A stretch of DNA of 51,499 nt from a virus: UHGV virus genome UHGV-1870764; one strand, written 5' to 3'. The notes beneath the pieces were generated by a model. The model did no database searches, was not told the DNA's origin, and saw only the letters and a list, made by a program, of their open reading frames with translations. Below are positions 1,575 to 51,011 of the stretch, piece by piece. The first letter of the stretch is position 1. Every line of letters begins with the position of its first letter. Both the position numbers and the translations under genes were made by a program.

Positions 1575-1641
1575 TATTTATAGGCTAAGTAAATAAAATG
1601 GCATATAGGCGGTAAATAGAAGCTCACAGGAGGTGTTAAGA

Positions 1642-1893
1642 ATGTTGAGAAGTTGGAAGAAACTAAAAACAATTAAGAACAGTATAAAACAGTTAAAAGG
1701 AATGCAAGAGCAAAACATTGGTGATGATTATAGTTGTGGAATATATAATGGAATAGAGCTGTGCATGGCAATCATAGAAGAAAGAGAACCAGTATTTGCA
1801 ACGTATGATTCAGAACCATTGAACATAGAACATGATGAAACAGTAGAAAGAACAGTAGCAAGCGGAATAATTAGAAGAGGTGGAAAGCAATGA
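1642..1893 (+). CDS. hypothetical protein
   Basis: ORF with an AGGAGG RBS 9 nt upstream of the ATG at 1642. Confidence 0.4.
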   Translation: MLRSWKKLKTIKNSIKQLKGMQEQNIGDDYSCGIYNGIELCMAIIEEREPVFATYDSEPLNIEHDETVERTVASGIIRRGGKQ

Positions 1894-2198
1894 GAGAATT
1901 ACACTTTGATGTTACTGGTCAGTTATTAAGAAGAAACAAACAATGTGATTTTGAAAACATTGTAAGGGGTTCAGATAATTATTTGTGTTTGGTATTTCAT
2001 TTTAACCAAGAGTGGCAAGGAACAAAAAGGGTTATAAGCATGTATGATGTAGATGGAAAACAAACAAATGAAATCATACAAGATAGAGTTACAGTGCCAG
2101 TAAATGTAACACATGGAAGTATGTTTTATTTTGAACTAACAGGAAAGAGCAACAAAACAAGAATAACAACAAATAGAGCATATATAGAACAAACATAA
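1890..2198 (+). CDS. hypothetical protein
   Basis: ORF whose start overlaps the preceding stop (ATGA), with a GGTGGAAAG RBS. Confidence 0.4.
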   Translation: MRELHFDVTGQLLRRNKQCDFENIVRGSDNYLCLVFHFNQEWQGTKRVISMYDVDGKQTNEIIQDRVTVPVNVTHGSMFYFELTGKSNKTRITTNRAYIEQT

Positions 2199-2212
2199 AG
2201 GAGGTGTTTGAA

Positions 2213-4132
2213 GTGCCTAGTGTAGATGAATTATTAAATATGGCAGAAGTAGCAGAGGTAACATTGACAGAAACAAATGATAAAATAGAAATAGATGCAG
2301 ATACAAGAACAATGATTATTCCAGACACAGAAAGAATATTCGGTGTTATGAGTGATGAAAAAGGTGAAAGAAAATATTTCAGATGTAAAAGGTTTGTTGG
2401 AAATGGAATAGATTTAAGTAAACTAGATTTAAGAGTTATTTATCAAAATGCAAGTGGTTTTGAAACAGGAAGAGATAAATATATTGTAACAGACCTAGCA
2501 ACAGATGGAGAAGATTATGTAACATTCAGTTGGGAACTAAGTAGAAAAGTAACAGCATATAAAGGTATTATATCTTTTATTGTTTGTGCGGTTAAAACCG
2601 GAACGGATGGCATTATAACAAATGAATGGAATACTACACTTGCAAATGGTGTAGTATTAGATGGTTTAGAAGTAAGCGGAACACAGGAGCAAGAAAAAGA
2701 AGCGTATGACTATTATAAACAACTTGAAGCAGAATTAGAAAAGAAAGCACAAGAGGTAATAGGAACAATTCCAAGTGACTATACGCAAACATTAAAAGAT
2801 GTTAATAATTTAAAGGGAGAAGTTGCAGATGGAAGAACGGATGTAGATGGGAACGTCCATAAAAACATCGGAGATGCCATGAGAGGACAGGCAAGAAAAC
2901 TAAGGGAGAATCTTGTTGTCCGTCAGAAAGAACAGCCAACAGACCCGAACAATAATGTATGGATTTCAGATGAAGATGATGAAGTGGAAGTGCCGGATAT
3001 GGTGGAATTTAATTCTCTCAAGGAAGGTTTGGGTAATAAAACCAAAAACTTAAAACAGTGGAATTTAATTGATATATCAAAAGTAAAAGAGGGATATGGT
3101 TATACGAATTCCATTGGATATCCGCCAACGCTGGTCGCACAAACGGGATATAATGCTATAGATGATATTATTCCGTGTGAGGCAGGAGAAACTTATACAG
3201 TTAATTGGTTGTATGGTGCTATTGGTATATATGATTCTAGTATAAAAAGAATACAACATATATATATAGATAGTATACCGAAAACATTCGTTGTGCCTGA
3301 TGGTGGATGCTATATGACCTTGTTTGGTGGTACTAAAAGAATGGTTGATATTATGCTCGTTGAAGGAAACGAGATTCCAGATGAATATATACCACATAGC
3401 ATTTTTGATATAGAAAGCAAAAAAGACTATGAGCAAGATAAAATATTAGAAAGTATTTTACATCCATTAAAAGGGGTGAAATGGTGTGCTTATGGAAATA
3501 GTTTGACAGATAGTGCAACACTCGCTGGTCAAACAACTGGTACTAAAAATTATGTTGATTACGTTTCGGAATCATTAGGACTAAATGTTGTTAACTGTGG
3601 TTCTGGTGGGACAGGATTTCTCAAAAACAATAATAAGGGAACTTTTGTAGATAGAGTATCAAGTATTCCTTTGGACACAGAAATTCTAACTGTATTCGGG
3701 TCTTTTAATGATTATGAGTATATATCTGAACACTTAGGGACTATTGGAGATACCGGAACCGACACTATTTACGGGGCAATATATAATTTTATACATGATG
3801 TGTATACAAGATGCCCTAATGCAATAATTGGTATTATTACACCTACGAAATGGGGGTATTTGTCTGATTGGAAAGATGTGTCTGCGGGAGGTTTATGTGA
3901 TTCGTATGTTGAAGCACTGTTGAAAACAGCAGACAAATGGTCAATTCCGGTATTAGACTTATATCATGATAGCGGGTTAAGACCTTGGGATTCAAATTTT
4001 GCACAGTTATATTATAAAGATGATGATGGAAACGGCACTGCAAATACAGTCCATCCTTTAGATGCGGCGCACAAGCGTTTTATAGCACCTAAGGTAGAAG
4101 CGTTTATAAAACAGATTTACCATGTTTACTAA
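2213..4132 (+). CDS. tail fibre-like structural protein with C-terminal SGNH/GDSL hydrolase (esterase/deacetylase) domain
   Basis: GTG start 8 nt after AGGAGG. The motif IPSDYTQTLKDVNNLKGEV is typical of phage fibre N-regions. The SGNH blocks are YGNSLTDS (Ser block), GSFNDY (GxND) and HPLDAAH (DxxH). Confidence 0.65.
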   Translation: MPSVDELLNMAEVAEVTLTETNDKIEIDADTRTMIIPDTERIFGVMSDEKGERKYFRCKRFVGNGIDLSKLDLRVIYQNASGFETGRDKYIVTDLATDGEDYVTFSWELSRKVTAYKGIISFIVCAVKTGTDGIITNEWNTTLANGVVLDGLEVSGTQEQEKEAYDYYKQLEAELEKKAQEVIGTIPSDYTQTLKDVNNLKGEVADGRTDVDGNVHKNIGDAMRGQARKLRENLVVRQKEQPTDPNNNVWISDEDDEVEVPDMVEFNSLKEGLGNKTKNLKQWNLIDISKVKEGYGYTNSIGYPPTLVAQTGYNAIDDIIPCEAGETYTVNWLYGAIGIYDSSIKRIQHIYIDSIPKTFVVPDGGCYMTLFGGTKRMVDIMLVEGNEIPDEYIPHSIFDIESKKDYEQDKILESILHPLKGVKWCAYGNSLTDSATLAGQTTGTKNYVDYVSESLGLNVVNCGSGGTGFLKNNNKGTFVDRVSSIPLDTEILTVFGSFNDYEYISEHLGTIGDTGTDTIYGAIYNFIHDVYTRCPNAIIGIITPTKWGYLSDWKDVSAGGLCDSYVEALLKTADKWSIPVLDLYHDSGLRPWDSNFAQLYYKDDDGNGTANTVHPLDAAHKRFIAPKVEAFIKQIYHVY

Positions 4133-4224
4133 AGAGGGCATAAAGCAAAAATTAGGAGAGGTTAATGTCTTTCTTTTTCTATGCAAAAATTTAGTAAACC
4201 AACCGCAGAAAGGAGAAGTAAAAC

Positions 4225-4509
4225 ATGAGTATATTCATAAAGAAATCCAAACTAAGAGTAAAAAATGAAGATGGAACAAGTTATACCGGAGTAATGAATG
4301 CCATAGCAGAAGAGAGTACAGAAGAATTAATCAAACAGATTGAAGCCAAGGGAAAGAAGACACTGGAGAGCATCCCAAAGGATTATACAGTACTGGAAGG
4401 GAATGTGGATAAACTTAAGGAAGATAAAGTTGATAAACCGTCAGTCAATGATAACAATAAAATACCAAGAGCAAAAGATGGAGAAGTTGAGTGGGTAGAA
4501 GTAGGGTAA
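4225..4509 (+). CDS. tail fibre N-terminal segment, in frame with 4510-5934 across a single TAA
   Basis: A strong RBS GAAAGGAGAAG precedes the ATG. It contains the fibre-like motif IPKDYTVLEGNVDKLKEDK. The frame is the same as the downstream pectate-lyase ORF, and the TAA at 4507-4509 is the only interruption. Confidence 0.55.
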   Translation: MSIFIKKSKLRVKNEDGTSYTGVMNAIAEESTEELIKQIEAKGKKTLESIPKDYTVLEGNVDKLKEDKVDKPSVNDNNKIPRAKDGEVEWVEVG

Positions 4510-5934
4510 CCAACAGATGAACAAACAAACAATGCAGTAAAAAGTTGGCTAAATGAGCATCCAGAAGCAACTACAACCGTACAAGATGGAAGTATTGAGG
4601 AAATAAAAATAAATAAAAAATTCTTACCGTATATTAAAAATAACTATGCTACACCTGAAATGTTCGGTGCGATTGGTGATGGCAAAACAGATGATACGCA
4701 GTCTTTTTTAAAGGCTATTGCAACAGGATATCCAATAGTAGGTTTTAAAGATTCAAAATATGTTGTAAAAGAACAGCTAGAATTTAAAAATTATTGCAAT
4801 ATCAGAAATGTATATTTAATTGCCGAAGAATCAATGAATAGTGTTATAAAATATAACAAACGTCATACAATTATTGATAATGTTAGTATAGATTGTAATA
4901 ATTTAGCGAGTTATGGAATATTAGGGTCTGATTCTGTCCCAATAGATACACTATATGTTTCAAATATAAGTAATTCGTCTGTGACAAATGCTCTAATAGA
5001 TGGATTTAACACAGGAAAAGTACGCACATATTATAATAATTGTTTTGCAAAATTATGTAAAAATGCAGGATTTTATATAGCAACAAGTGATACAAAACAT
5101 GATTGCTTAGTTCCGATTGATTGTAAGTATGGCGTATATGTTGAAAGCGGAAATACAAATATTGATAGATTTCATCCTTGGAGTTGGGAAACAAAGCAGA
5201 CCGGATTATACATAAAAAGTGGAAAATTAGTAAACATACAATATTATTATAATGATACCAATAACATTGGTATTGGTTATGATGGCGGTGTTAAGCTTGC
5301 CATTCACACACTTGCAAATTATAACAATCAAAATGCTCCTAGTGCTGTTGACGAAAAAAGTAGAATGATGGTTAAAGTTGGCGAAGATGGTGGTTCGCCA
5401 TTAATAGTTATAAATAATATTATAGGCTCTTTTAGAGGGTGTGATGATTATTTTGATTATCCTACTACAAGTATAAGATATATAAGGGTAGACAATATAT
5501 CATTCGAAAGAAATGATGTAAAGTTTGGCAGAAAATTTCGTTCGTCATATATAGACCCATATTTATATGAGATTTTTTTGAATAATTTTAGCATAATTAG
5601 TTCTGTATTAGATGTTAAGAAAGTAAGTATTAGAAGTTTAATGTCTAGTTTAGATGGTTATAGGGTAGATTTTGATATTAAGTTTGAACAAGCTAAATTA
5701 ACTGTAAATAATATGACAGATATTCTACAAATATATTATTTAGGTGAAGAAACGAATTCAGTTAGGTATAAGTTGTGTAGTAGTTCGGGTTCATTTTCTG
5801 GTATGTCATTTCATGTAGCGGTAAAAAAAGACGATAGTAATAATGAAAAAGGTTGTTCTGTTCGTTCAAATACTGATTTCACGTTTGATGGAATTCTACT
5901 GTTAAGATTAGATATTAAAATGGAATTGTACTAA
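4510..5934 (+). CDS. pectate-lyase-fold (right-handed beta-helix) tailspike/depolymerase domain protein; annotated ATG at 4660 but coding-like sequence extends in frame to 4510
   Basis: FGAIGDGKTDDTQSFLKAI is the pectate-lyase-superfamily N-terminal signature. The in-frame upstream stretch KSWLNEHPEATTTVQDGS is a conserved fibre motif, and no start codon lies between 4510 and the ATG at 4660. Confidence 0.6.
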   Translation, partial: PTDEQTNNAVKSWLNEHPEATTTVQDGSIEEIKINKKFLPYIKNNYATPEMFGAIGDGKTDDTQSFLKAIATGYPIVGFKDSKYVVKEQLEFKNYCNIRNVYLIAEESMNSVIKYNKRHTIIDNVSIDCNNLASYGILGSDSVPIDTLYVSNISNSSVTNALIDGFNTGKVRTYYNNCFAKLCKNAGFYIATSDTKHDCLVPIDCKYGVYVESGNTNIDRFHPWSWETKQTGLYIKSGKLVNIQYYYNDTNNIGIGYDGGVKLAIHTLANYNNQNAPSAVDEKSRMMVKVGEDGGSPLIVINNIIGSFRGCDDYFDYPTTSIRYIRVDNISFERNDVKFGRKFRSSYIDPYLYEIFLNNFSIISSVLDVKKVSIRSLMSSLDGYRVDFDIKFEQAKLTVNNMTDILQIYYLGEETNSVRYKLCSSSGSFSGMSFHVAVKKDDSNNEKGCSVRSNTDFTFDGILLLRLDIKMELY

Positions 5935-6017
5935 ACCAATTAAATGACACTTTAATTATCTAAAAAAAGTTGGTGTGATATTCTGTATAACTAAAAAATA
6001 ACAGGAGGTATAACAAT

Positions 6018-6344
6018 GTGACAACTGCGGAAATGATTGGTATTGTGGTAATAGGGTTAAGTTCTTTAATCGGAGTATTCACAGCAATATACAGACCATT
6101 AAGCGAAAACACAAAAGCAATGACAAAATTAACACTAAGGGTTGAACAGTTGGCAAAAGAAATAAGAGAACAAAATGAGAAACTAGAGAAACAGAACAAA
6201 GAAATAGAAGAATACAAAGAACATGTGAGAAAAGGACAGAAACAACAGTGGGATGCAATAGAGAGAAATGAAAAAGAAATAGATGAAACAAAACATGCAT
6301 TAGAATTATGTAAATTAGAAAATGGAGGTAAAAAACATGTTTAA
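6018..6344 (+). CDS. lysis-associated membrane protein (N-terminal TM helix plus coiled coil; holin-like/XhlA-like)
   Basis: GTG start 10 nt after AGGAGG. The hydrophobic segment IGIVVIGLSSLIGVFTAIY is followed by a long charged coiled coil. It sits directly upstream of the holin and endolysin. Confidence 0.45.
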   Translation: MTTAEMIGIVVIGLSSLIGVFTAIYRPLSENTKAMTKLTLRVEQLAKEIREQNEKLEKQNKEIEEYKEHVRKGQKQQWDAIERNEKEIDETKHALELCKLENGGKKHV

Positions 6345-6570
6345 GAATTGTGTATTTAAGATTTCGGTAAACACACAGCAATGGATTAAAGCGGCTAGTG
6401 TAAGAGCTGTTAAAACAATGGCACAGGCGGCTATTGGTGCAATCGGAGCGGGAACACTAATCAGTTCTGTAGATTGGAAGATGGTGGTAAGTACTGCGAT
6501 TGTTGCGGGAGTTGTGAGCGTTCTAACGAGCGTTGCGGGTATTCCAGAGGTTGAGTCTAAGGAAGTCTAA
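6337..6570 (+). CDS. holin (two predicted TM segments)
   Basis: A 77-aa protein with two hydrophobic stretches (AAIGAIGAGTLISSV and VSTAIVAGVVSVLTSVAGI). A GGAGGT RBS precedes the ATG at 6337, and the gene is adjacent to the endolysin. Confidence 0.55.
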   Translation: MFKNCVFKISVNTQQWIKAASVRAVKTMAQAAIGAIGAGTLISSVDWKMVVSTAIVAGVVSVLTSVAGIPEVESKEV

Positions 6571-6628
6571 GGGTAGCATATTAAAATTGATTCTAGGGCA
6601 TAAATAGAAGCCCACAGAGGTATATATA

Positions 6629-7543
6629 ATGAGTAAAACAGCACAAGGATTAATTGAGTTTGCAAAAAGTAAAATTGGAACAGCTTATGTATATGGAGCA
6701 AAAGGAACTGTACTAAGTTTGGAACAGATACGGCAACTAAGAAGAACGTATGGTTCTAACTGTGTTTGGTACAGTGACGACAACAAGGCGGGCAAAGTCT
6801 GTGTAGATTGTAGTGGACTTATTAGTTGGTACACTGGTATTGTAAGAGGTAGTGGACAATATAGGAGTACAGCGGTAGAAGTTATTCCAATCTCACAGAG
6901 AACAAATAACCATATTGGTTGGGCGGTATGGATGAAAGGACATATTGGAATTTATCTTGGTAATGATATATACATTGCCGCAGATGGTTCAGCACATGGA
7001 GTAAGAATCGCAAACCTCTCACAAAACAATTTTACACACTTGTTAAAGCTCTGTGATATTGATTATGGTGAGGGAACAAAACAACCAGTAACAGAAAAAC
7101 CACAGCCAAGTGGAGGACATTACAATGTTCCAGTTAATTTTACATATGCAGTAAGAGTTGAGGGTGGAACAATTTATCCATTTGTTAGAAATTTACAGGA
7201 CTTTGCGGGAGTACAAGGTAGGAAGATAACAGACATTGCAATTAAGTGTGATGTTGGCTCTGTTAGTTACCGAGTTCATGTTCTTGGAAAAGGATGGTTG
7301 CCTTTTGTTTCAGGATGTAATTGGAGTGATGGAAACAATGGATATGCGGGCAATGGAAGAGTGATTGACGCAGTACAAGTTATTTATCATCCGCCAGTAG
7401 GAAGTTGGCAGAAAGCACAGTATAGAATCTCACCAGTAAAACGGGGATACTATTCATGGCAATATAATGACGAAACAACAGGTGGACAGGATGGTTATGC
7501 GGGTGCTTTTGGAGTTCCAATGGACAGATTCCAGTTATTCTAA
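6629..7543 (+). CDS. endolysin: N-terminal NlpC/P60 cysteine peptidase plus C-terminal ChW-type cell-wall-binding repeats
   Basis: Catalytic Cys context VDCSGLISW and His context GHIGIYLG. Two ~40-aa repeats (YRVHVLGKGWLPFVSGCNWSDGNNGYAGNGRVIDAVQVIY and YRISPVKRGYYSWQYNDETTGGQDGYAGAFGVPMDRFQLF) resemble ChW repeats. Confidence 0.7.
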   Translation: MSKTAQGLIEFAKSKIGTAYVYGAKGTVLSLEQIRQLRRTYGSNCVWYSDDNKAGKVCVDCSGLISWYTGIVRGSGQYRSTAVEVIPISQRTNNHIGWAVWMKGHIGIYLGNDIYIAADGSAHGVRIANLSQNNFTHLLKLCDIDYGEGTKQPVTEKPQPSGGHYNVPVNFTYAVRVEGGTIYPFVRNLQDFAGVQGRKITDIAIKCDVGSVSYRVHVLGKGWLPFVSGCNWSDGNNGYAGNGRVIDAVQVIYHPPVGSWQKAQYRISPVKRGYYSWQYNDETTGGQDGYAGAFGVPMDRFQLF

Positions 7544-7593: not shown

Positions 7594-7636
7594 TATAAAA
7601 ACATAAAATATTTATTGCTTATTTTAATAATAAATA

Positions 7637-7665
7637 TTGACATATATATATTTATATATTATAAT
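7637..7665 (+). promoter_or_regulatory. consensus sigma-A promoter (TTGACA-N17-TATAAT) driving the portal/morphogenesis operon
   Basis: Perfect TTGACA at 7637-7642, exactly 17 nt of AT-rich spacer, and TATAAT at 7660-7665. Confidence 0.7.
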
Positions 7666-7697
7666 ATATTATATAATAGAAAGGAGTATAATATTAA

Positions 7698-9296
7698 ATG
7701 GCTAGTAAACAACATAGTGTTGAAGTAATACAAGCATTAAGAAACTTTCCTTATTTTGTTTTAAAGAATGAAATAGAAGAGGGATACAATTTATATACAC
7801 AGGAACTTTTACAAATACAACAAAATTATATGGACTATAAAAAAGGTGCTGAATTTGTAACAGAGGGAACAGCAGGAGATTATGTAGCATCAGATGTTAG
7901 GTTTAAGATTGCTAAAACATTAATTGATAAAGAAGCAAGATTCATGTTCAGCCAAACACCAGATTTTTTAATTCAGCAGAATTATGTTGATGAAGAAAAT
8001 GAAGAACAGGTACAGCAATACCAAACATTAGTAAACAAAGTTTTGAAAAAAAGTAGTTTTTCAAGAACACTGTTACAAAGCGCAAAAGATTGTTTTATCG
8101 GAAAGCGTGTAGCGTGTTTAGTTGACTTTTCAGAACAAGATGGAATACAAACACATTTTTATAATAGTTTACAGTTCTATTATGAGACAGATTATGGTTC
8201 AGACAGATTAACAAAGTTTATAAGTTTTGAAAGTGTGAACAGAACAAAACAAACAAGTCAAAAGAAATACTTAGTAAACAGATATGAAGAGATAAATGGA
8301 CAAATACATTTTAGTTCAACATTGTATAATGGAATCGGTAATGTAGAACAGGAAGTTGTAAAAGAACAGATAATCGAACTTGATTATATTCCAGCAGTTG
8401 TTATTTTAAATGATGGAACATTGATTGACAAACAAGGAGTATCAGAGATTGAAGATTTAGCATTGTATGAATCTGCATACAGTAGACTTGGAAATGCAGA
8501 TGTAGACACCGAGAGAAAAGGAATGAATCCTATACGTTTTACAGTTGATATGAATGCAGAGACAACAGCTAATCTAAGCAGTGGAGCCGGTGCATACTGG
8601 GATTTACGCTCAGAACAAAATCAAAATGAAGTTCATCCATCTGTCGGAACACTAGCACCACCAATGAACCATACAGAGAGTGTTAAGACAACATTGGAAA
8701 GAATTAAAACAACAATGTATGGAGAACTTGATATACCAAACATTTCAGAAGAAACAATGGTTGGAACAATAACAAGTGGGAAAGCATTGAAAGCATTATA
8801 TTATCCATTGCAAGTAAGATGTGATGAAAAGATGAAAGCATGGATACAAGCATTAGAGTTTATTGTTGAGTGTATTTTAGATATTGCAATGTTAAACAAA
8901 GATGAAGTTGTTTCAAAATATGTTTTAACAGGATTGGACGAAATACAGTATAACATTAATATTTTAGAACACTATGCATTAATGGAAGATGAAGATGACG
9001 AAAAAGCGTCTGACCTTTCAGAGATTGCGGCAAATGCAAGAAGTAGAAAGTCATACATTAAGAAGTGGAGAAGAAACGAATTTAAAACAGATGCACAGAT
9101 TGATGATGAACTTATGCAGATTGCAATAGAAAACAATATGTTTGATAGTATGAGCATGAATGCACAAGTACAGGGAGAACTTGGAAACCTTGAAACAAAA
9201 CAGCAAGTGGAAAAGAATGTACAACAAATTGAAACACAAACAAAACTTGGGGAGCAGAATGGACAGGGTGATGTAAATAATGGCGCAGAAGTTTAG
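7698..9296 (+). CDS. portal protein
   Basis: A 532-aa protein in the position immediately before the MuF-like gene. An acidic C-terminus is typical of SPP1-type portals. An AAAGGAG RBS precedes it. Confidence 0.65.
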   Translation: MASKQHSVEVIQALRNFPYFVLKNEIEEGYNLYTQELLQIQQNYMDYKKGAEFVTEGTAGDYVASDVRFKIAKTLIDKEARFMFSQTPDFLIQQNYVDEENEEQVQQYQTLVNKVLKKSSFSRTLLQSAKDCFIGKRVACLVDFSEQDGIQTHFYNSLQFYYETDYGSDRLTKFISFESVNRTKQTSQKKYLVNRYEEINGQIHFSSTLYNGIGNVEQEVVKEQIIELDYIPAVVILNDGTLIDKQGVSEIEDLALYESAYSRLGNADVDTERKGMNPIRFTVDMNAETTANLSSGAGAYWDLRSEQNQNEVHPSVGTLAPPMNHTESVKTTLERIKTTMYGELDIPNISEETMVGTITSGKALKALYYPLQVRCDEKMKAWIQALEFIVECILDIAMLNKDEVVSKYVLTGLDEIQYNINILEHYALMEDEDDEKASDLSEIAANARSRKSYIKKWRRNEFKTDAQIDDELMQIAIENNMFDSMSMNAQVQGELGNLETKQQVEKNVQQIETQTKLGEQNGQGDVNNGAEV

Positions 9297-16149: not shown

Positions 16150-19053
16150 ATGGCGGTTAATATGGGAACTGCTGTGGCATATTTGGAACTTGATTCAAGT
16201 AAGTTTCAAAAAGGGTTTAAATCCGCTTATAATGACCTAAAAGTTTTTGGGGATAAATCAGCCACAGCAGAACAAAAGTTTAAAGGACTTTCAAGTGCTT
16301 TTGCCACAGTTGGAAGTACAATGTCAAGAAATGTAACATTGCCACTTGCAGGAGTAGGAGCGGCGGCACTTAAAGCAGGAACAGATTTTGAGAGTGCTAT
16401 GTCACAAGTTGCCGCAACAATGGGAACAACAACAGATAAGATTCAAAACCTTTCAAAGTTTGCACAGCATATGGGTGCTACAACAGCGTTTAGTGCAACG
16501 CAAGCGGCAGAGGGATTAAATGTATTAGCGCAGAGTGGATTAACGGCAGAAGAGCAAATGACAGCACTTCCAGAGGTGTTGAACCTTGCGGCGGCTGGTA
16601 ACTTAAGTCTTGCTGATTCCTCAACATATGTCGTAGGTACTCTTAAAGGATTCGGCAAGGGAATGGACGAAGCAAAGCGTGTTACAGATTTAGTTGCTAA
16701 AGGAGCAACAATGGCGAACACAGATGTTAGAGGATTAGGAACAGCACTTTCTTCTTCATCCGCAACAGCTAAGAGCTATGGACAGAATATGGACAGTGTA
16801 ACATTAAGTTTGTTACGATTAGCAGAACAAAACATAACAGGAGAAGAAGCGGCAACATCATTAAACAGAGCAATGATGGATTTGTACACACCTACAAGTA
16901 CAGCCAAGAAAGCACTTGATGAATTAGGTGTTTCAGTGTATGATGCACAAGGCAATGCAAGAGATTTTAATGACGTTGTAGATGAATTAAATGGCAAACT
17001 AAGTGGGATGTCAGAGGAAGAAAGAAACGCATATAAAAACACCATATTCACAACATATGGATTGCAAGCGTTCAACAAAATGACAGTTTCATCAACAGAG
17101 AAAGTTAATGATTTTAAAGAGGGACTAAAAGATGCAAACGATTCAGCACTAAAACAAGCACAAACACAGCTTGATAATTTAAAGGGTGATATAACACTTT
17201 TTAAATCAGCATTAGAGGGTGCGGGAATTGTTATATCAAATGTATTAATACCAAACATAAGAAATTTTATTAAGTGGCTTACAAATCTTGTAACAAAGTT
17301 CAATGAATTGTCAGAAGAACAACAGAATTTTATTGTAAAAGCGGGTCTTGTAATTGCCGCAATCGGTCCAGTTTTGCTTATTTTGTCAAAAGTGGCAAGC
17401 ACAATAGGTACTATAATTACAATTGTTAAAACAGCAAGTGGAGTTATTGGAAGTGTAACAAAAACGATACAGCTTCTTAGTATGGGGCAATCAGAACTGA
17501 TAGCAAGCATGGGTGGAATACCAAGTGTTATAACAAAAATCGCAACGACTTTTAGTTCGGTAATAGCACCGATTTTAGGAGTTGTTGCAGTTATTGGAAC
17601 ATTGGTTGCAATGTTTGTTACATTGTGGAAAACAAATGAAGAATTTAGAACTAACATAACAAATACATTCAATGAATTAAAGAAAGTGTTTTCAGATTTT
17701 GCGAATGAATTTGTAAGTAAGATAAATGAATTAGGTTTTAATTTTGAAAGTATCACAGATGTAATTAAAACAGCATGGGAGACACTATGTGATATATTTG
17801 CACCAGTATTTGAGGGTGCTTTTTCTACAGTTGTAGATATTATACAGCTTGTTTTAAACAATGTTCTAAGTATAATGGATATATTCATTGGAATATTTAC
17901 AGGAGATTTTGAACAAGTTGCAGATGGCATAAAAGGATTGTTTGACAATATAGTAGAAACATTCACAAGTATTGGAAGCACAATTTTAAGCACTATAGGA
18001 GACATAGGAGCGGAGATATTAGAGAAGTTTGGACTTGATGAAGCAGCACAAAAGTTTCAAGAGTTCTTTGACAAAGTGTCTGACATTTTCAGCAGACTTC
18101 CAGAAATCATTTTGGGAGCGTTTGATAGTGTTAAGACATTCTTTACCGAAACAATTCCGGAGGTATTTAACAATGCAGTTGAAGCAATACAAGGTTTTGT
18201 TAATAATGTGATTAGTTTCTTTACCGAAACAATACCAAATGCATTCAATATTTTTGCGAATGAAACAATACCAAACACAATAAATGCGATTGTAACATGG
18301 TTTGCACAGCTACCAAGTAGGATATGGGAATGGTTGCTGAACACAATAAACAAAGTTATTGAGTGGGGTTCAAATATGTTACAAATCGGAATAGAAGCCG
18401 CTTCAAACTTTTTAACGAATGTAGTACAGTGGTTTTCTCAACTACCAAGCAGAGTGTGGACATGGTTATCAAATACATTGAGCAAAATTATTTCATGGGG
18501 TTCACAGCTTGTACAAAGTGGAACAAGAACAGCTTCTAATTTTGTTTCAAGATTTATTTCATTTATGCAACAGTTACCTAGTAAGGTTTGGAGTATAGTA
18601 TCACAGATACCTAGTAAAATACTTGCAATAGGCGGTCAGATGTACAGTGCTGGTAGAAATATTCTGTCACAGCTGTGGAATGGATTAAAGAGTATAGGAA
18701 ACAGCATCCTCGGATGGGTAAGCGATTTTGCTGGGAAGATTGGAAGTTTTGTCAGTGGGATTGTTAGTGGATTCAAGAATGTTGTGAGTGGTGCAAATGA
18801 AGCAAAGTCAGCCGCAAGAAGTGTAAATGGTAAACATGCAAATGGTTTGGATTATGTACCTTTTAATGGATATGTAGCAGAGTTACATAAAGGAGAAAGG
18901 GTATTGACAAAACAGGAGAATGAAGAGTATAATAACAGTAGAGGTAAAAATAGTAGTGGAGACACATTCAACTTCTACAATACAAAACCAAACGCATATG
19001 AGTATGCAAGACAAATGAAAAAAGCAAAAAGGGAGTTATTGTTAGGGTTTTAA
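16150..19053 (+). CDS. tail tape measure protein
   Basis: A 967-aa protein with a TM-rich central region and internal W/F-containing tandem repeats (WFSQLPSRVWTWL... repeated). Its position is after the chaperone gene. Confidence 0.8.
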   Translation: MAVNMGTAVAYLELDSSKFQKGFKSAYNDLKVFGDKSATAEQKFKGLSSAFATVGSTMSRNVTLPLAGVGAAALKAGTDFESAMSQVAATMGTTTDKIQNLSKFAQHMGATTAFSATQAAEGLNVLAQSGLTAEEQMTALPEVLNLAAAGNLSLADSSTYVVGTLKGFGKGMDEAKRVTDLVAKGATMANTDVRGLGTALSSSSATAKSYGQNMDSVTLSLLRLAEQNITGEEAATSLNRAMMDLYTPTSTAKKALDELGVSVYDAQGNARDFNDVVDELNGKLSGMSEEERNAYKNTIFTTYGLQAFNKMTVSSTEKVNDFKEGLKDANDSALKQAQTQLDNLKGDITLFKSALEGAGIVISNVLIPNIRNFIKWLTNLVTKFNELSEEQQNFIVKAGLVIAAIGPVLLILSKVASTIGTIITIVKTASGVIGSVTKTIQLLSMGQSELIASMGGIPSVITKIATTFSSVIAPILGVVAVIGTLVAMFVTLWKTNEEFRTNITNTFNELKKVFSDFANEFVSKINELGFNFESITDVIKTAWETLCDIFAPVFEGAFSTVVDIIQLVLNNVLSIMDIFIGIFTGDFEQVADGIKGLFDNIVETFTSIGSTILSTIGDIGAEILEKFGLDEAAQKFQEFFDKVSDIFSRLPEIILGAFDSVKTFFTETIPEVFNNAVEAIQGFVNNVISFFTETIPNAFNIFANETIPNTINAIVTWFAQLPSRIWEWLLNTINKVIEWGSNMLQIGIEAASNFLTNVVQWFSQLPSRVWTWLSNTLSKIISWGSQLVQSGTRTASNFVSRFISFMQQLPSKVWSIVSQIPSKILAIGGQMYSAGRNILSQLWNGLKSIGNSILGWVSDFAGKIGSFVSGIVSGFKNVVSGANEAKSAARSVNGKHANGLDYVPFNGYVAELHKGERVLTKQENEEYNNSRGKNSSGDTFNFYNTKPNAYEYARQMKKAKRELLLGF

Positions 19054-20005: not shown

Positions 20006-21586
20006 ATGGTAACAATATTAGATGATACGATGTGCATAGTTGACATTCTCCGCAAATATGAATATTCACAGTATGAGTTTAAGGCAAGAGAAATAGGAAC
20101 ATTTACAATTAATGCAATGCTTGATAAAGAAAATTTATATTTGATGGATAAAACAAAGAATTATTATGTTTTGTTTGACAATGATGTTTTCGGAGTCATT
20201 GAGTCAGTAAAGCGTGAAAGTGATAGTGAAACAAGTAAGGTATTTACGATAAAAGGTAGCCTTGCATTAAAACTGTTGGAATATAGAGTTATCAAAGGGC
20301 AAGTGACATTTAAAGGAAAAAGCTATAAATACATTGAAGAGTTGGTAAAACAAAACCTTATAATGTCAGATGATGAAAATAGAAACATTGCACTTGCCGT
20401 TGAGTTTGAAAATGAAGAAAGATTAAAACAAATATGTAGCACAATAGATAAACAAGTAACAGGTGGTTCTTTGTGGGATGAAATTAGTGAAGTCGCAGAA
20501 GCCGATAAACTAAGAATCGCATTAAGACCAAACGTTGTAGTTATTAATACAGAGCATCCGCAGAACATTGATGGATGGACATTGATAATTGGAGCTGGTG
20601 AAGATAGAACAAGGCATAGAACAAACAAGGCGGTTAGTTCTGTTGTGTTTTCTCAATCATTAAGTAATATAGCAAACACAGATTATACAGTTGATAGAAG
20701 TAAGTTAAGAAATACAGTATATATTGCAGGAGAGGGAGAGGGAACAGACAGAAAGTGGTATAATATAGATGTTAATTCAGACGTTACTTTTGGAGAGCGT
20801 AAAGGGTGGAATAGGAAAGAACTATGGGTTGATGCAAGAGATGTTCAAAGTGAACAGGATAACAAAAAGCTAACAGATGCAGAGTATGAAGAGCTTATGA
20901 AACAAAGGGCAGATGAAAAAGCCAAAGATAATGATTTAAGTGAAGAGTACACAGCAACAGTTACAGATATAACAAAACAGTATACATATAAAAAAGATTA
21001 TAACATTGGTGATTTTGTTACAGTAGCGGATGAAGAACTGGGAATGGAAATTGATGCACAGATTACAAACGTAATAGTAACAATACAAAATGATAGAGAT
21101 ATTGTTGACATAGAATTTACGTATGGGTCAAGAATTCAAGACGTAACAGACATTATACAAGATGTTATAAACAAAGTTCAAAACAATTCAACAACAGTTA
21201 AATATTTAGAGAACAGAAGTGGTAAAACAGCAACACAAGTTTTTGAATACATTGTTGAAGAGGGCGAAAATGAAAACGGACATTATAGGAAGTGGAGTTC
21301 TGGCTTGTTGGAACAATGGGTTTCGGACAAGCTAACAACAGCGGCAATAAATAATAAATATAACAGTTTATATCAAGGTATATTTTCATGGAAATTTCCT
21401 ATACAGTTCTTAGAACAACCGGAAATTGTAATATGTTCAAAAGCGCAATATGGGAATGGTGCTTCATGGGGAACTGTATATAATTGGTCAGTAAGCTTGG
21501 CAAACATAAGAGCCTTTGATACAGTTTCAAGGGAATCAGCAAATGAAATGAAGTTCACAGCATATGCAAAAGGTAGATGGAAATAA
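20006..21586 (+). CDS. tail-associated protein (Tal / tail endopeptidase-like)
   Basis: A 526-aa protein following Dit, in the canonical siphovirus order. Confidence 0.5.
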   Translation: MVTILDDTMCIVDILRKYEYSQYEFKAREIGTFTINAMLDKENLYLMDKTKNYYVLFDNDVFGVIESVKRESDSETSKVFTIKGSLALKLLEYRVIKGQVTFKGKSYKYIEELVKQNLIMSDDENRNIALAVEFENEERLKQICSTIDKQVTGGSLWDEISEVAEADKLRIALRPNVVVINTEHPQNIDGWTLIIGAGEDRTRHRTNKAVSSVVFSQSLSNIANTDYTVDRSKLRNTVYIAGEGEGTDRKWYNIDVNSDVTFGERKGWNRKELWVDARDVQSEQDNKKLTDAEYEELMKQRADEKAKDNDLSEEYTATVTDITKQYTYKKDYNIGDFVTVADEELGMEIDAQITNVIVTIQNDRDIVDIEFTYGSRIQDVTDIIQDVINKVQNNSTTVKYLENRSGKTATQVFEYIVEEGENENGHYRKWSSGLLEQWVSDKLTTAAINNKYNSLYQGIFSWKFPIQFLEQPEIVICSKAQYGNGASWGTVYNWSVSLANIRAFDTVSRESANEMKFTAYAKGRWK

Positions 21587-31400: not shown

Positions 31401-32594
31401 ATGGGAAATTTTTTCGATTTACACAGGCACACAGAATATTCATTGTTTGATGGGTTTGGAAAGTCTATAAATTTAGCAAAACACGCAAAGGAATTAGGCT
31501 ACAGAGCATTAGGGATAAGTGACCATGGAACAATCAGTGGATTAATAAAACATTATCAAGCATGTAATGAAGTTGGAATAAAACCAGTTATGGGATGCGA
31601 AATATATTTCCAACCAAAATTCAATAAAGAAAATCCAAAAAGAAAGAGTTACCATTTGAACTTGTTTGTGAAGAATTTGCAAGGATATAAAAATTTATGT
31701 CACATTATGACAGAAGCAAACACAAAACAGTTCTATTATAAACCAATAGTTGATTTTAAGTTACTTGAAAAATATTCGGATGGACTTATATGTACGACAG
31801 CTTGTATAGCAAGCGCAACGTCACAAGCTATTTTAAATGGTCATAGAAGCACAGCAGAGCGTTTATTGGATAAGTTTAAGGAAATATTCAAAGATGATTT
31901 GTACGTTGAAATACAGCCATATAAGATAGATGCACAGGGTACACAGCAAAGAACAGACTATGAACTTATGGGAATGGCAAAAAGAAAGAAAATAAAATGT
32001 ATTCTAACAAGTGATTCACATTTTGGAAGTAAAGAAGATTTTGACACATATTGTAAAATGCACGAAATCGGAAAAACAACATTGGATGTAAAAAGAACAT
32101 ACAGTGAAAGGTATATGCCTACAGAATATGAGATAACAGAACGATTTGCAAACATCTATAAAAAGAAGTTTAAAAAGCCAATGGAACTTGCAGAACGATT
32201 TGCAGATAACATGAAAGAAATATATAACAAAGTAGAAGATAACATACTAGATGGGTTAGAGCTAGAACTTCCTAAAATATCAGATGATGGAGCAAAACAA
32301 CTCGAAACATTAACAAAACAAGGATTGAAAAACAGAAACAAATGGAATAAAGAATATTGGAAAAGATGTAAAGAAGAATTGGAAGTAATCAATTATCATG
32401 GTTTTGCAGACTATTTCCTTATTGTTAGAGATTACATAACATGGGCGAAAGAAAATGGAATTGAAACAGGAAAGGGAAGAGGTTCTGTATGTAATTGCCT
32501 CGTAGCTTATGCAGTAGGAATTACAGAAGTAGACAGTATAAAATATAACCTTGATTTTAGCAGATTTATGAGAAAGGAAAAGAAGTCATTGCCT
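31401..32594 (+). CDS. dnaE: DNA polymerase III alpha (DnaE-type) exon 1: PHP domain and palm N-part
   Basis: PHP motif DLHRHTEYSLFDG. It ends ...FMRKEKKSLP, immediately before the conserved PDIDLDF block, which resumes at 33418. Confidence 0.7.
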
Positions 32595-33417
32595 AAACTT
32601 AATTGGGCATCATTCGTGAACATTGCTTAATGGTGTGTATTATTATAATATGCTAACGGTATCAGAAAAATAAGACTCCTTATTGAAATGTTACAACAGG
32701 ATAATAGGGCATAGACCATAGACGAATAATCTGACTAAGAAACCCTAAACCAGTGACGGTGAGATAGAGGGAATACCGTGCCAAGTCTATATAGAAAGGA
32801 AGTGAATTAGATGTTTAAAAGTATGGAAGAGTTTGACCACCATTCAATAGATGAATATGGAAATGTTTTAAATGAGAAAACAGGAAATATATTAAAACCT
32901 TATGTTGGAAGTGGCGGTTATTTATATGTGAAGCCATGTGAAAACAATATAACAAAACATTTGTCAATACATAGAGCAGTAGCAAAATATTTTTGCAAAG
33001 GATACAAACCAGAGCTAGTTGTTGACCACATAGATGGGAATGTAAAGAACAACTATTATGAAAATCTTAGATGGTGTAAGCAAGCAGACAATTTGAAGTA
33101 TGGATATGAGAGAAGAAAAGATACACCATTCAGAAATTATAGACCATGTAAATTGTATGTTGGAAATAAATTGATAGATGAATTTCTAAGTATAACAGAA
33201 GCTGTGGAATATGCAGAAAAACACTACAATGTTAAAAGAGCAATGTTACACAAACATCTAGTTTATGGAAATGTTCGTATAGAAAGGTGTAACGACTAGT
33301 TTGTGAAGAGAGTAACAAGTGTAGGAATGGAGATAAGCACCATTCCGAAGTGCGAATGCCACAATAGTGGAAGATATAGTCTAGCCTTGATAGTTTGGAA
33401 ACGAACGACTAAGGTAG
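32595..33417 (+). mobile_element. group I intron 1 in dnaE carrying HNH homing endonuclease (boundaries approximate)
   Basis: The exon ends in U. A candidate internal guide sequence GGGCA ~14 nt into the intron pairs with the exon end TGCCT. The intron ends in G just before GATATTGAC. About 180 nt of non-coding sequence flanks the ORF with stops in all frames. Confidence 0.6.
32811..33299 (+). CDS. HNH homing endonuclease (intron-encoded)
   Basis: VVDHIDGNVKNNYYENLRWCKQADN is an HNH motif. It has its own RBS AAAGGAAGTG. Confidence 0.7.
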   Translation: MFKSMEEFDHHSIDEYGNVLNEKTGNILKPYVGSGGYLYVKPCENNITKHLSIHRAVAKYFCKGYKPELVVDHIDGNVKNNYYENLRWCKQADNLKYGYERRKDTPFRNYRPCKLYVGNKLIDEFLSITEAVEYAEKHYNVKRAMLHKHLVYGNVRIERCND

Positions 33418-34494
33418 GATATTGACTTAGATTTCGAACGAGATAGGAGACAGGAAGTAATTGATTATGTTATAAACAAATACCCAAACAAAGCAATACA
33501 AATTTGTTCTTATGGTATGTATGGAGTTGATAATCTTGTGAATGATTTGGCTAGTGTTTGTAATCTAAAAACAACAAAAGATGTTGATTGGTTTGAAGCA
33601 GATGAAAATAAAAAAGTGATTGCAGAAATTAAGTCATATATTAAGGGATTCATAGTAGATGATGAACTGAATATGAGTAACCTATTAAATGGATACAGAA
33701 CAGAAGAGTTTAATGAAAAATATGATAATATTATAAAACATTTCTCAAAACTTTATGGCAAAATAAAGTACCTTGGAAAACATGCGGCTGGTGTTGCAGT
33801 AGTCGGTACAGACATAAGTGACTATACTTGCATTATTATGCGAGATAGAAAGACAGGAGCGTTAAGCAGTTGTTTTGACAAAGATGATTTAGAGCATATT
33901 AATTGTGTAAAGTTTGATATGCTTGGACTTAAAACAATGTCAGAAATGCGTGAGCTAAGAGAGAAAACAGGGCATGAGATAACAGAAGAGGATGAAGAAA
34001 GCGAAGAAGTTATAGAGGGATTCAGAGAGGGAAGAACAGATGGAATATTTCAGATGGAGAAGTCAGCACCTAAAAAGATTCTTGACATGATTCAGTGTGA
34101 TTGCATTAATGATATTATAGCGGTGAATGCATTAAACAGACCAGCACCATTACAGTTACATATGCATGAAACGTACGCACATAACAAACTCTCTGATAAT
34201 GTTGATAAGAACACGCCGTATTATAAATATACACAAGAAACATATGGAACAATGTTATACCAAGAGCAAACAGTTGAAGTAGCACAAAAGGTTGGACATT
34301 TAACACCACAGCAGAGTTTTGATATGTTAAAGATTATGAAGAAAGCAGAGAACTTAACAAAGCCGGAGTATATTCCAATCATTGAACAAATGAAAAAAGA
34401 TTTCTTTAGAGGATGCAAAAAAGAGGGACTGACAAAAGAACAAACAAATAGTATATGGGCGAGTATGCTCATATATGGATTTAACCGCGGGCAT
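33418..34494 (+). CDS. dnaE: DNA polymerase III alpha exon 2 (boundaries approximate)
   Basis: It begins DIDLDFERDRRQEVIDYVINKY, in frame with track ORF 33517, and ends ...IYGFNRGH, corresponding to the E. coli GYGFNKSH block. Confidence 0.65.
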
Positions 34495-35640: not shown

Positions 35641-36090
35641 TCAACAGGATACGCTTTAATATCAATAGACCAGATGTATTACAAAGTACATTACCCAACA
35701 CAGTTTTGGTATGTTAAAATGAAGTATGCAGATAATGATGCAGATATATTTAAGTATTCGCAATTTGCAGTAAAAGATGGTGCTGTGGTTATGCTACCGC
35801 ATGTAAACTACTCAGCTAAAACTTCATTGCGTAAAATGGATGGAGAGGACGTTATACAGCAAGGGTTGAGTATTATTAAGGGTATCGGAGAAAAAGCCGC
35901 AGAAACAATAGAAGAAGAGCGTAGAAAGGGTGTGTTTAAATCATATGATGATTTCTATGATAGATGCAAAGGAAGAAGCGTTACAACAAGAGTGATTGAT
36001 ATTCTAAAAGAACAGGGCGCACTTGAATTTAATAAAAACAAATATATGAGCAGAGTTGTAAAATATAACAGCACATTAATGGCGAGGTGA
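35641..36090 (+). CDS. dnaE: DNA polymerase III alpha exon 3 (C-terminal part; start approximate)
   Basis: STGYALISIDQMYYKVHYP aligns to the E. coli SAAYALVSYQTLWLKAHYP block. Track ORF 35611 starts with GTG inside the intron. Confidence 0.6.
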   Translation, partial: STGYALISIDQMYYKVHYPTQFWYVKMKYADNDADIFKYSQFAVKDGAVVMLPHVNYSAKTSLRKMDGEDVIQQGLSIIKGIGEKAAETIEEERRKGVFKSYDDFYDRCKGRSVTTRVIDILKEQGALEFNKNKYMSRVVKYNSTLMAR

Positions 36091-50773: not shown

Positions 50774-50777
50774 GCAT

Positions 50778-50849
50778 TGCCTTATGGTGAAATGGTAACA
50801 CACAGGACTTTGACTCCTGTATTTGTTGGTTCGAGTCCAACTGGGGCAG
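50778..50849 (+). tRNA. tRNA-Gln (anticodon UUG)
   Basis: Manual cloverleaf. Acceptor TGCCTTA/TGGGGCA with U1-A72 and G73 (Gln identity elements). D-loop AATGGTA, anticodon stem CAGGA/TCCTG, loop CTTTGAC, T-arm GTTGG-TTCGAGT-CCAAC. No encoded CCA. Confidence 0.75.
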
Positions 50850-50939
50850 TTGCACACTATAAAAGGTGTGCGAAACAAATATTTCTTTTCTTGCTAAAGT
50901 GTTGTGAGTAGTGTTCAAGCGCATGAAAGCAACACATAA

Positions 50940-51011
50940 GGAGCATTAGTTCAATGGTAGAGCAACCGCCTCATAAGCGGTAAGTTGTAGGTTCGAGTCC
51001 CACATGCTCCA
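50940..51011 (+). tRNA. tRNA-Met elongator-type or tRNA-Ile2 (anticodon CAU)
   Basis: Acceptor GGAGCAT/ATGCTCC, D-arm GTTC-AATGGTA-GAGC, anticodon arm ACCGC-CTCATAA-GCGGT, T-arm GTAGG-TTCGAGT-CCCAC (one A.C mismatch). G1-C72 and a non-GGG anticodon stem argue against an initiator. Confidence 0.7.

Follow-up and report, generated by a model that had tools for sequence, protein, structure and literature searches.

The window, that is, the whole stretch of 51,499 nucleotides that was analysed (UHGV-1870764), belongs to a ~51.5 kb phage of gut Clostridia and carries a cassette of two adjacent RBP genes, flanked by the large terminase gene on one side and by the lysis and portal genes on the other. 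The first gene (2213-4132) bears a long anchor and the second (4225-5934) a short N-terminal peptide, a layout that recurs in the related loci L001, L044, L046, L047, L049, and L050 (Table 1). Sequence searches with the first fibre recognised nothing beyond the SGNH domain (PDB) and a PHROG without assigned function, with no match to a T4gp10-like branching domain of the kind that docks the second RBP in anchor-branch systems. Among the public phage genomes of INPHARED, megablast and tblastn gave no match for the fibre region, and the only link was through the portal protein, which shares 75% amino acid identity with Clostridium phages CS266P1-4, where the fibre cassette is absent from the equivalent place. 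Exact-protein look-ups of the 94-aa ORF, the 424-aa ORF, and the endolysin likewise yielded no record.

Table 1. Features of the two-spike cassette and the phage tRNA-Gln, in positions of the window
Feature	Position	Strand	Remarks
First fibre: long N-terminal anchor (VPSVDELL...) and SGNH/GDSL esterase	2213..4132	+	Start GTG 2213, not 2204, by homology
Shine-Dalgarno AGGAG	4211..4215	+	9 nt 5' of ATG 4225; kept in L001 and L002
N-terminal "second-spike" anchor module, codons 1-66, MSIFIKKSKLRVKNEDG...IPKDYTVLEGNVDKLKED	4225..4422	+	Heads intact genes in 7 contigs
Conserved linker, codons 67-145, KVDKPSVNDNNKIPRAKDGEVEWVEVG[stop]PTDEQTNNAVKSWLNEHPEATTTVQDGSIEEIKI...TPE	4423..4659	+	Joins many differing N- and C-terminal modules
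In-frame TAA, codon 95	4507..4509	+	CAA or CAG (Gln) in relatives; one C-to-T at 4507
Right-handed beta-helix (pectate-lyase-3-like) catalytic/receptor-binding domain, predicted	4660..5510	+	AlphaFold2, Foldseek
C-terminal beta-sandwich and natural TAA stop	5587..5934	+	Model strands 360-473
Phage tRNA-Gln, anticodon UUG, ordinary, no suppressor	50777..50850	+	Same tRNA and anticodon in relative L042

The second RBP gene occupies one frame, in which ORF 4225-4509 is followed by an open frame at 4510-5934 with the TAA at 4507-4509 as the sole interruption. This agrees with the preliminary description, where the two ORFs were said to share a frame and to be split by this TAA alone, and the frame indeed stays open to the TAA at 5932-5934. 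With a stop probability of 0.089 per codon derived from base composition, 50 open codons would arise by chance with p ~0.01 and 474 open codons with p ~7e-20, while the two other frames of the same stretch contain 60 and 83 stops. Two long same-frame segments joined at a stop with no start nearby occur only here in the whole window, and no further broken genes were found in it. The + strand is strongly depleted in C (12% C against 21% G), in line with a C-to-T pressure that has acted on the coding strand over the long term.

The absence of an in-frame start from the 150 nt between the TAA and position 4660, also claimed at the outset, was confirmed by the lack of any ATG, GTG, or TTG among the 50 codons at 4510-4659, in which only ATT or ATA is present (at 4594, 4603, 4609, and 4633). 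In contrast, the reference to an "annotated" ATG at 4660 has to be withdrawn, since no annotation exists there and the codon is merely the first in-frame ATG. No Shine-Dalgarno sequence was detected at ATG 4660, and a search for an internal promoter, terminator, or start that could serve a separate downstream gene gave only consensus noise without a Shine-Dalgarno sequence. Judged from the sequence, ATG 4660 is a conserved internal methionine of TPEMFGAxGDG and not a start codon.

These features bear directly on a deliberate split of the gene, in which a 94-aa adaptor would accompany a free or separately assembled depolymerase produced from ATG 4660 or by reinitiation. Such a product from 4660 would hold the entire beta-helix, and in another group of phages (L054-L057, at least 10 contigs) this anchor module does form a stand-alone 99-aa gene that is followed by a separate 504-aa gene. 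Moreover, the proteins of many phages begin ~25-30 codons before AVxxWLxxHPEATTTV, which places the stop near a natural module boundary. However, the downstream gene of L054 starts 12 nt after the stop with its own GGAGG-N7-ATG, whereas the next start here lies 150 nt away, has no Shine-Dalgarno sequence, and coincides with the internal methionine of the domain. A split would also leave 50 conserved codons, from the stop to 4660, without use, and no relative with the same linker is split at this point, so that two deliberately separate proteins are regarded as an improbable outcome.

Short proteins matching the 94-aa query were considered as candidates for a conserved stand-alone product and were rejected, as they are deletion stubs (L053, L058, L059), the separate RBS-bearing gene (L054-L057), or fragments on very short contigs. 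Homologs with an RBS and a start at the equivalent of 4660 had been named beforehand as the observation that would contradict a single interrupted gene. One apparent case was encountered, P0018, which is itself a broken gene with an in-frame TAG 25 codons upstream, at TTTV[Q]DG, and no RBS.

Comparison with relatives identified the codon that the stop replaces. At this position, the 38 other loci with the same linker carry Gln (CAA/CAG) in 30 cases, Leu in five, Thr in two, His in one, and a stop in none. The nearest alleles read GGG CAA CCA where the window reads GGG TAA CCA, so that the difference is a single C-to-T change; GGG CAA is present in L022, L039, and L017, and further aligned alleles have GGT CAA or GGA CAG. 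In the alignment to homologous fibres that had been suggested as a check, these proved to be uninterrupted, with Gln at the stop position in P0007 (573 aa, 100% coverage), P0029, P0001, P0002, and P0005. In a set of 124 distinct loci that share the HPEATTTV motif, the window alone has a stop at this codon, and only L060 has one elsewhere in the linker, where a TAG replaces another Gln codon, 25 codons further along, in an unrelated phage. When the JGI metagenome collection was scanned specifically for the stop, no hit was obtained. Over the 1425 nt that follow the stop, identity to the intact gene is 98.1% for L039 and 97.9% for L012.

The modules on both sides of the stop are also known from intact genes. 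The 66-aa anchor module opens uninterrupted genes of 543-738 aa with differing C-terminal parts (L001, L002, L044, L046, L047, L049, L050), and this short anchor was found on three different C-terminal modules. The N-terminus is exchangeable, with a C-terminal module of the window type carried on the long anchor in P0001, P0002, and P0005; in relatives the long first-fibre anchor is fused directly to a depolymerase of this type. The segment following the stop (PTDEQTNNAVKSWLNEHPEATTTVQDGSIEEIKI), initially described as conserved-looking, displays strong DNA and protein conservation over dozens of loci, and in the beta-helix domain residues M51, F52, G53, and D61 are invariant or nearly so among homologs. 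The IPxDYT...LKED motif that had been noticed both here and in the neighbouring SGNH fibre was confirmed, although the similarity is weak (29% identity over 51 aa, E 3e-4). The anchor module may serve to attach the spike, either to the virion itself or to the first fibre. As the first 140 residues have no confident fold in the AlphaFold2 monomer of a full-length homolog, we infer this mechanism of attachment.

The assignment of a pectate-lyase fold to the downstream part gained support from an AlphaFold2 model, from Foldseek matches to tailspikes, and from the presence of PF12708 in homologs, on which PF13229 and PF05048 were found as well. The model of 4510-5931 (pLDDT 87, pTM 0.80) has a right-handed parallel beta-helix as its body, and the best PDB matches are the beta-helix tailspikes of phages Det7 (gp208) and Sf6 together with Klebsiella phage depolymerases; the matched entries comprise 6f7k (E 1.9e-9), 2vbk, 7xyc, 9k4a, and 3gq8. 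Confidence is low for the linker, where the stop falls between a beta-hairpin and a helix.

Programmed readthrough, giving a short and a long product from one gene, had been the headline of the preliminary description and did not find support, while its fallback of a recent nonsense mutation or sequencing error stood up to the analysis. A weaker form would be leaky readthrough, in which a near-cognate tRNA reads the UAA at 4507 with low efficiency. The most plausible one is the phage tRNA-Gln(UUG), which would restore the ancestral Gln; much 94-aa stub and little full-length spike would result. The stop does stand in place of a Gln codon in a phage encoding tRNA-Gln(UUG), the ORF downstream of it is intact, and the linker of L060 likewise has a Gln codon changed to TAG. 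The C that follows the stop (UAAC) provides a weaker termination context and is the only mildly favourable feature; this tetranucleotide ends one of the 57 ORFs tallied, namely ORF 4225-4509 at the interrupting stop itself. Against this, UAA is the least leaky stop in bacteria and the main terminator of this genome, ending 35 of the 57 genes in the window, and the stop is conserved in none of the 38 homologous loci. Folding of the 100 nt that begin with the stop is no more stable than that of shuffled sequence (z -0.2), so that no stimulatory RNA structure is apparent. An Rfam scan returned just tRNA-Gln(UUG) and tRNA-Met(CAU), the only tRNAs in the window, where no suppressor tRNA and no UUA anticodon were found, and the UUG anticodon of the former is the normal one, identical in L042. 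No precedent for readthrough in tail-fibre genes came up in a search of the literature. Taken together, leaky decoding is considered very unlikely.

Some observations run counter to an account by nonsense mutation. An undamaged downstream ORF is equally expected of a gene that is still expressed, and the Gln-to-TAG change of L060 and the presence in the window of a tRNA-Gln(UUG) near-cognate to UAA would both be coincidences under purely random mutation. A speculative idea of slight probability is that Gln-to-stop changes in the tailspike linker (TAA here, TAG in L060) are tolerated or used by way of low-frequency decoding by Gln tRNAs; in this phage, decoding by tRNA-Gln(UUG) might then equip part of the virions with a second spike in sub-stoichiometric amounts, which would act as a simple bet-hedging switch for host range.

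A more radical form of recoding would be the reassignment of TAA to an amino acid in this phage, for which we know of no description in phages. The Gln expected at the stop position would suit such an alternative genetic code, and TAG-to-Gln recoding is known in human-gut phages (PMC9523058), but the TAA that closes 35 of the 57 ORFs, the single in-frame TAA interrupting a conserved gene in 51.5 kb, and the lack of a tRNA with anticodon UUA make this reassignment next to negligible. Stop-codon usage effectively refutes an alternative code, and a suppressor tRNA was likewise rejected, since the window has Gln(UUG) and Met tRNAs only. The locus reveals no new recoding mechanism and represents an ordinary kind of event.

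The locus is best accounted for by a nonsense mutation of recent date, or by a consensus error, with a 94-aa anchor stub as the result, in agreement with the fallback of the preliminary description: one C-to-T change separates CAA from TAA, and the 1425 nt downstream are 98% identical to intact genes. With a sequencing, consensus, or assembly artefact, the true codon at 4507-4509 would be CAA and the 569-aa tailspike would be intact; the T would stem from faulty base calling or polishing, or from a minority variant that entered the consensus. The stop codon is exactly one base away from the closest alleles and the remainder of the gene is perfect, as such an artefact would have it, and lesions that look plainly technical are present in other public assemblies for this gene family (in L003 and L004, A-runs with two +1 A insertions; in the 1.2 kb contig L025, a frameshift). 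A TAGT-like glycosyltransferase in the window also hints at modified DNA, which may disturb base calling on some platforms. However, the change is a substitution and not a homopolymer indel, which is unusual for a long-read consensus and rare in a short-read consensus; moreover, no other gene of the window is broken, and relatives have real truncations of the same slot. An artefact therefore remains a serious but clearly less likely explanation, and the lesion is provisionally taken as a real mutation in preference to a consensus error.

A recent, real nonsense mutation of the second tailspike gene, with the distal part unexpressed and one working spike left, is thus considered the probable origin of the stop. 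As in a recent pseudogene, orthologs are intact with a sense codon, a single mutational step separates them from the window, and the distal part has no independent start. The recent date is suggested by the downstream sequence, which is undamaged and 98% identical to intact genes. Briefly, 4225-5934 constitutes one 569-codon gene, the second tailspike of a two-spike cassette, whose protein would consist of an attachment module of ~66 aa, a widely shared linker of ~80 aa, and a beta-helix domain for polysaccharide depolymerisation or binding with its beta-sandwich. A C-to-T transition at 4507 would have converted the conserved Gln codon 95 from CAA to TAA, so that translation would end after 94 residues with the anchor stub only, and the 475 downstream codons, lacking a start and RBS of their own, would be essentially unexpressed. 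The second spike would then be lost from the particles, and the phage would in effect have one working spike, the SGNH esterase fibre.

Such a lesion would be in keeping with a lineage that has exchanged, truncated, or lost its second spike on repeated occasions. The second-spike slot of L053 holds a 161-aa stub with a holin-like gene directly after it, L058 and L059 have a 79-aa stub and ~500 nt of debris, the second-spike gene of L003 and L004 has two +1 frameshifts, L001 retains a 3' remnant, and L060 adds its own Gln-to-stop change. These stubs, frameshifts, and remnants show that loss of the second-spike gene is recurrent and, together with the lesion in the window, that the slot turns over quickly in this lineage of gut Clostridia phages, which is relevant when host ranges are predicted from phage genomes in metagenomes. 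Provided that the change is real, the SGNH-esterase fibre is probably the only one on display, which may give this phage a narrower host range than its relatives have. In annotation, one disrupted tailspike gene (pseudogene or nonsense allele) should be entered for 4225-5934, and not a 94-aa protein plus a 424-aa "depolymerase" from 4660.

In its predicted fold and its modular N-terminal attachment part, the product resembles Det7 gp208, the Sf6 tailspike, the Klebsiella K2/K64 depolymerases, and phi29 gp12, although the identity of 4660-5934 to these beta-helix tailspikes is merely 9-16%. The A1 minor coat protein of phage Q-beta, a case of programmed readthrough, similarly derives from one ORF with an in-frame stop and the potential for a short and a long product; however, Q-beta uses a leaky UGA that is conserved and cannot do without the long product, whereas the UAA described here is found in no relative and is accompanied by no stimulatory signal. 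Gut phages that recode TAG to Gln ("code 15", PMC9523058) share with this phage the human-gut origin and an in-frame stop at a Gln position of a late structural gene, but the codon concerned here is TAA, which is the main terminator, interrupts a gene only once, and has no suppressor tRNA.

Closer parallels are offered by inactivated accessory fibres. As described in PMC12617516 (citing Hendrix & Duda 1992), the stf gene of the laboratory strain lambda PaPa, which likewise encodes an accessory fibre, lost its function through a point lesion, a frameshift, in a phage that is otherwise viable and in whose relatives the gene is intact, while here a nonsense substitution is seen in an apparently environmental genome and dispensability of the spike is presumed. 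The "anchor-branch" dual-RBP system of the Klebsiella KP32viruses (PMC6872550) also comprises two adjacent RBP genes, the first long-anchored and the second with a short group-conserved peptide and an exchangeable depolymerase, and in some members the second gene, located just upstream of the lysis genes, is reduced to the conserved peptide. The present phage differs in its Gram-positive gut Clostridia hosts, its long tail with a tape-measure protein, and the position of the cassette between large terminase and portal. In KpV767 of KP32viruses group C, the second RBP is cut to 69 aa and retains the conserved N-terminal peptide only (Latka et al. 2019, PMC6872550); in comparison, one nonsense codon that leaves the depolymerase complete downstream would represent an earlier stage than deletion.

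The second tailspike gene (+ strand) opens with an ATG at 4225, preceded nine bases upstream by a good AGGAG, and runs for 94 codons to a TAA at 4507-4509, after which the same frame stays open for 474 codons up to the TAA at 5932-5934. This strand is A-rich, and at its per-codon stop probability of 0.089 an open run of that length has a chance expectation of about 7e-20, while the other two frames of the same stretch contain 60 and 83 stops. ATG, GTG and TTG are absent from the 50 codons after the internal TAA, and the first start codon beyond it, ATG 4660, is without a Shine-Dalgarno sequence. The preliminary description was therefore correct in placing both parts in one frame with no start before 4660.

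A search with the fused translation retrieved 418 relatives, and in the close ones a single protein continues without interruption over the stop site, with ...EWVEVGQPTDEQ... there. The homologous proteins P0007 (573 aa) and P0029 (543 aa) begin with the same short N-terminal module, and P0001, P0002 and P0005 (694 aa) carry the depolymerase of the window (82-91% in all; 98% for the portion after the stop in P0001) fused to the long anchor that here heads the SGNH fibre. At the DNA level, GGG TAA CCA in the window corresponds to GGT CAA CCA and GGA CAG CCT in the related contigs L001 and L002, and to GGG CAA CCA in L017, L022 and L039, from which it differs by one C-to-T change at 4507. A degenerate linker pattern with this codon left free, applied to IMG/VR, public metagenomes and contigs fetched by protein, recovered 38 other loci (including a few contigs that two collections share) with CAG in 17, CAA in 13, a Leu codon in five, Thr in two and His in one; TAA is found in the window only. 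The pattern restricted to TAA, TAG, TGA or TGG had no match in the metagenome collection, and among 124 distinct loci with HPEATTTVxDG an in-frame stop within the linker occurs only in the window and in contig L060. Over the 1425 nt past the stop, the window differs at 27 positions from the intact gene of L039 and at 30 from that of L012, which indicates a young lesion.

The leading and probable explanation is a genuine nonsense mutation of recent date, from CAA to TAA, which would leave a 94-aa anchor stub and silence the depolymerase. Depletion of C in the coding (+) strand of the whole window (A 41%, T 26%, G 21%, C 12%) fits with pressure towards C-to-T change. A consensus error or minority variant, which would give the same single-base difference, comes second and is rather unlikely. 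The earlier suggestion of a recent nonsense mutation or a sequencing error thus stands as a pair, given the CAA-to-TAA difference and the intact downstream frame, with the nonsense change ranked first.

Programmed readthrough, also proposed at that stage, did not hold up, since the stop is unique to the window at this codon, TAA terminates 35 of the 57 ORFs (TAG 12, TGA 10), folding of the 100 nt that begin at the stop is no more stable than that of shuffled controls (-10.4 kcal/mol, z -0.2), and the only tRNAs in the window are Gln(UUG) and Met(CAU). A scan for long same-frame pairs joined by one stop picked out this site as the only one in the window with no start codon immediately after the stop. 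With TAA in such general use as a terminator, codon reassignment is most improbable. Leaky readthrough by the phage tRNA-Gln, for which the chance is also slight, is kept above zero by this tRNA (relative L042 encodes the same one, with the same anticodon) and by a second Gln-to-stop change in the linker, in L060. The coincidence is weak evidence because transition nonsense mutations are possible only at CAA, CAG, CGA and TGG codons and because the searches were aimed at this linker. L060 (3218-5287; ENA ERZ28634297 scaffold_2929) comes from a phage that is not related to the one in the window and has another type of terminase and portal; its in-frame TAG falls 25 codons past the place of the window's TAA, and among the 10 called genes of the 9.3-kb locus TAG serves as a stop solely at the interruption, with no other in-frame TAG.

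A deliberate split yielding a free depolymerase is likewise very unlikely. The Met encoded by ATG 4660 belongs to TPEMFGAxGDG, a nearly invariant motif at the beta-helix entrance, and is an internal residue in all homologs. The one candidate for a homolog starting there, P0018 (428 aa, MFGAVGDG), comes from L060, where a full fibre upstream is broken by the TAG at HPEATTTV[Q]DG and no RBS is present; P0018 is another broken gene and sets no precedent for a start. A fibre made naturally as two proteins does exist in a different phage group (L054-L057, at least 10 contigs), in which the anchor module is a separate 99-aa gene ending in TAG and, in L054 (4001-5827), a same-frame 504-aa gene from another family (phrog_17147) follows 12 nt after the stop with its own GGAGG-N7-ATG. 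The window lacks exactly such an RBS and nearby ATG. This group also has XkdX and a GH25 lysin.

Codons 1-66 make up a separate module (MSIFIKKSKLRVKNEDG...IPKDYTVLEGNVDKLKED), found at the head of intact 543-738 aa genes on seven contigs, and codons 67-145 a linker (KVDKPSVNDNNKIPRAKDGEVEWVEVG-Q-PTDEQTNNAVKSWLNEHPEATTTVQDGS...) whose DNA is nearly identical among phages with completely different flanking modules. The AlphaFold2 model of 4510-5931 (mean pLDDT 87, pTM 0.80) shows a predicted short helical linker, long right-handed beta-helix and C-terminal beta-sandwich. Its top Foldseek matches in the PDB are phage tailspikes and depolymerases (Det7 gp208, Sf6 tailspike, Klebsiella Kp7, K2 and K64 depolymerases, CBA120 TSP4, phi29 gp12), and PF12708, PF13229 and PF05048 are present in homologs. 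On many viral contigs (L072, L100, L117, L126, L136, L137, L161, L166), proteins start only about 25-30 codons before AVxxWLxxHPEATTTVxDGSI, so an autonomous module begins at this motif; the window's TAA lies close to that natural boundary.

At about 51.5 kb and 33% G+C, the window has the look of a complete, one-strand phage genome. Gene order in 1633-7543 is unusual, as a receptor-binding protein cassette (two small ORFs and the tailspikes), holin and endolysin lie between large terminase and portal, all of them at a great distance from the tail genes; in the isolated relatives CS266P1-4, lysis genes occupy the same place without spikes. Mechanical ORF calling puts the start of the SGNH fibre at GTG 2204, but the M/VPSVDELL N-terminus of homologs points to GTG 2213, nine bases past AAGGAG, as the probable true start. 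In L001 (590-2789) and Clostridium phage CS266P3 an HNH/I-HmuI-type endonuclease insertion divides the terminase gene, and in many relatives a 244-aa HNH_3 gene directly follows the terminase gene (compared: L001, L041, L043-L052).

Features of the window and damaged second-spike loci of related contigs
Feature	Location	Remarks
Large terminase gene	156-1574	intact, 472 aa, no HNH gene after it
Two small conserved ORFs		between large terminase gene and SGNH fibre
SGNH/GDSL-esterase fibre	2204/2213-4132	
Disrupted second-spike gene	4225-5934	
Holin-like gene	6018-6344	
Endolysin	6629-7543	
Portal gene	7698-9296	remaining head and tail genes downstream
Tape-measure gene	16150-19053	
Sipho_Gp37-like gene	20006-21586	
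DnaE piece	31401-32630	PHP + NTPase-N
HNH_3 ORF	32811-33299	between DnaE pieces
DnaE piece	33517-34539	NTPase-C + fingers
LAGLIDADG ORF	34757-35557	between DnaE pieces
DnaE piece	35611-36090	HhH
ParB_N-domain ORF	48485-49108	
Weak TAGT match	49105-49914	31 bits, cut-off 27.5
tRNA-Gln(UUG), tRNA-Met(CAU)	50777-51011	otherwise ORF-poor right end
L053 stub		161 aa, ends just inside beta-helix, abuts holin-like gene
L058, L059 stub		79 aa, then ~500 nt non-coding debris
L001 remnant	7633-7962	~330-nt non-coding 3' remnant of window-type depolymerase, past stop of different second-spike gene
L003 insertions (same in L004)	6020-6045, 7436-7445	two single-A insertions (+1) in A-runs, A5->A6 and A7->A8

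Elsewhere, the DnaE-type DNA polymerase III alpha gene (31401-36090) is in three pieces, and the interruptions look like two insertions with homing endonucleases (introns or similar); Rfam at the gathering threshold gave no group I intron. At the ParB_N/TAGT site, relatives carry ParB_N with an N6/N4 methyltransferase, or TAGT (TET-associated glycosyltransferase), and 48485-49914 may be a variable DNA-modification module.

Contigs with the window's 102-aa ORF have one fibre gene or two at the cassette site, and damaged forms are found beside intact second spikes in relatives. The L001 remnant is the footprint of a module replacement, while the A-run insertions in L003, whose depolymerase is the closest copy (97% aa identity), and in L004 are either homopolymer sequencing errors or slippage. 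The nonsense change in the window may represent an early stage on the way to the gene loss that relatives display. Taken together, the finding is an ordinary one, involving no new kind of system, and 4225-5934 is correctly annotated as a single disrupted tailspike gene.

The gene layout corresponds to the anchor-branch model of Klebsiella phages, in which a long-anchor first receptor-binding protein is accompanied by a second with a short group-conserved peptide, and in some members the second is truncated to the conserved peptide, as in KpV767 at 69 aa (PMC6872550). A classic precedent is stf of lambda PaPa, likewise an accessory fibre inactivated by a point lesion (PMC12617516).
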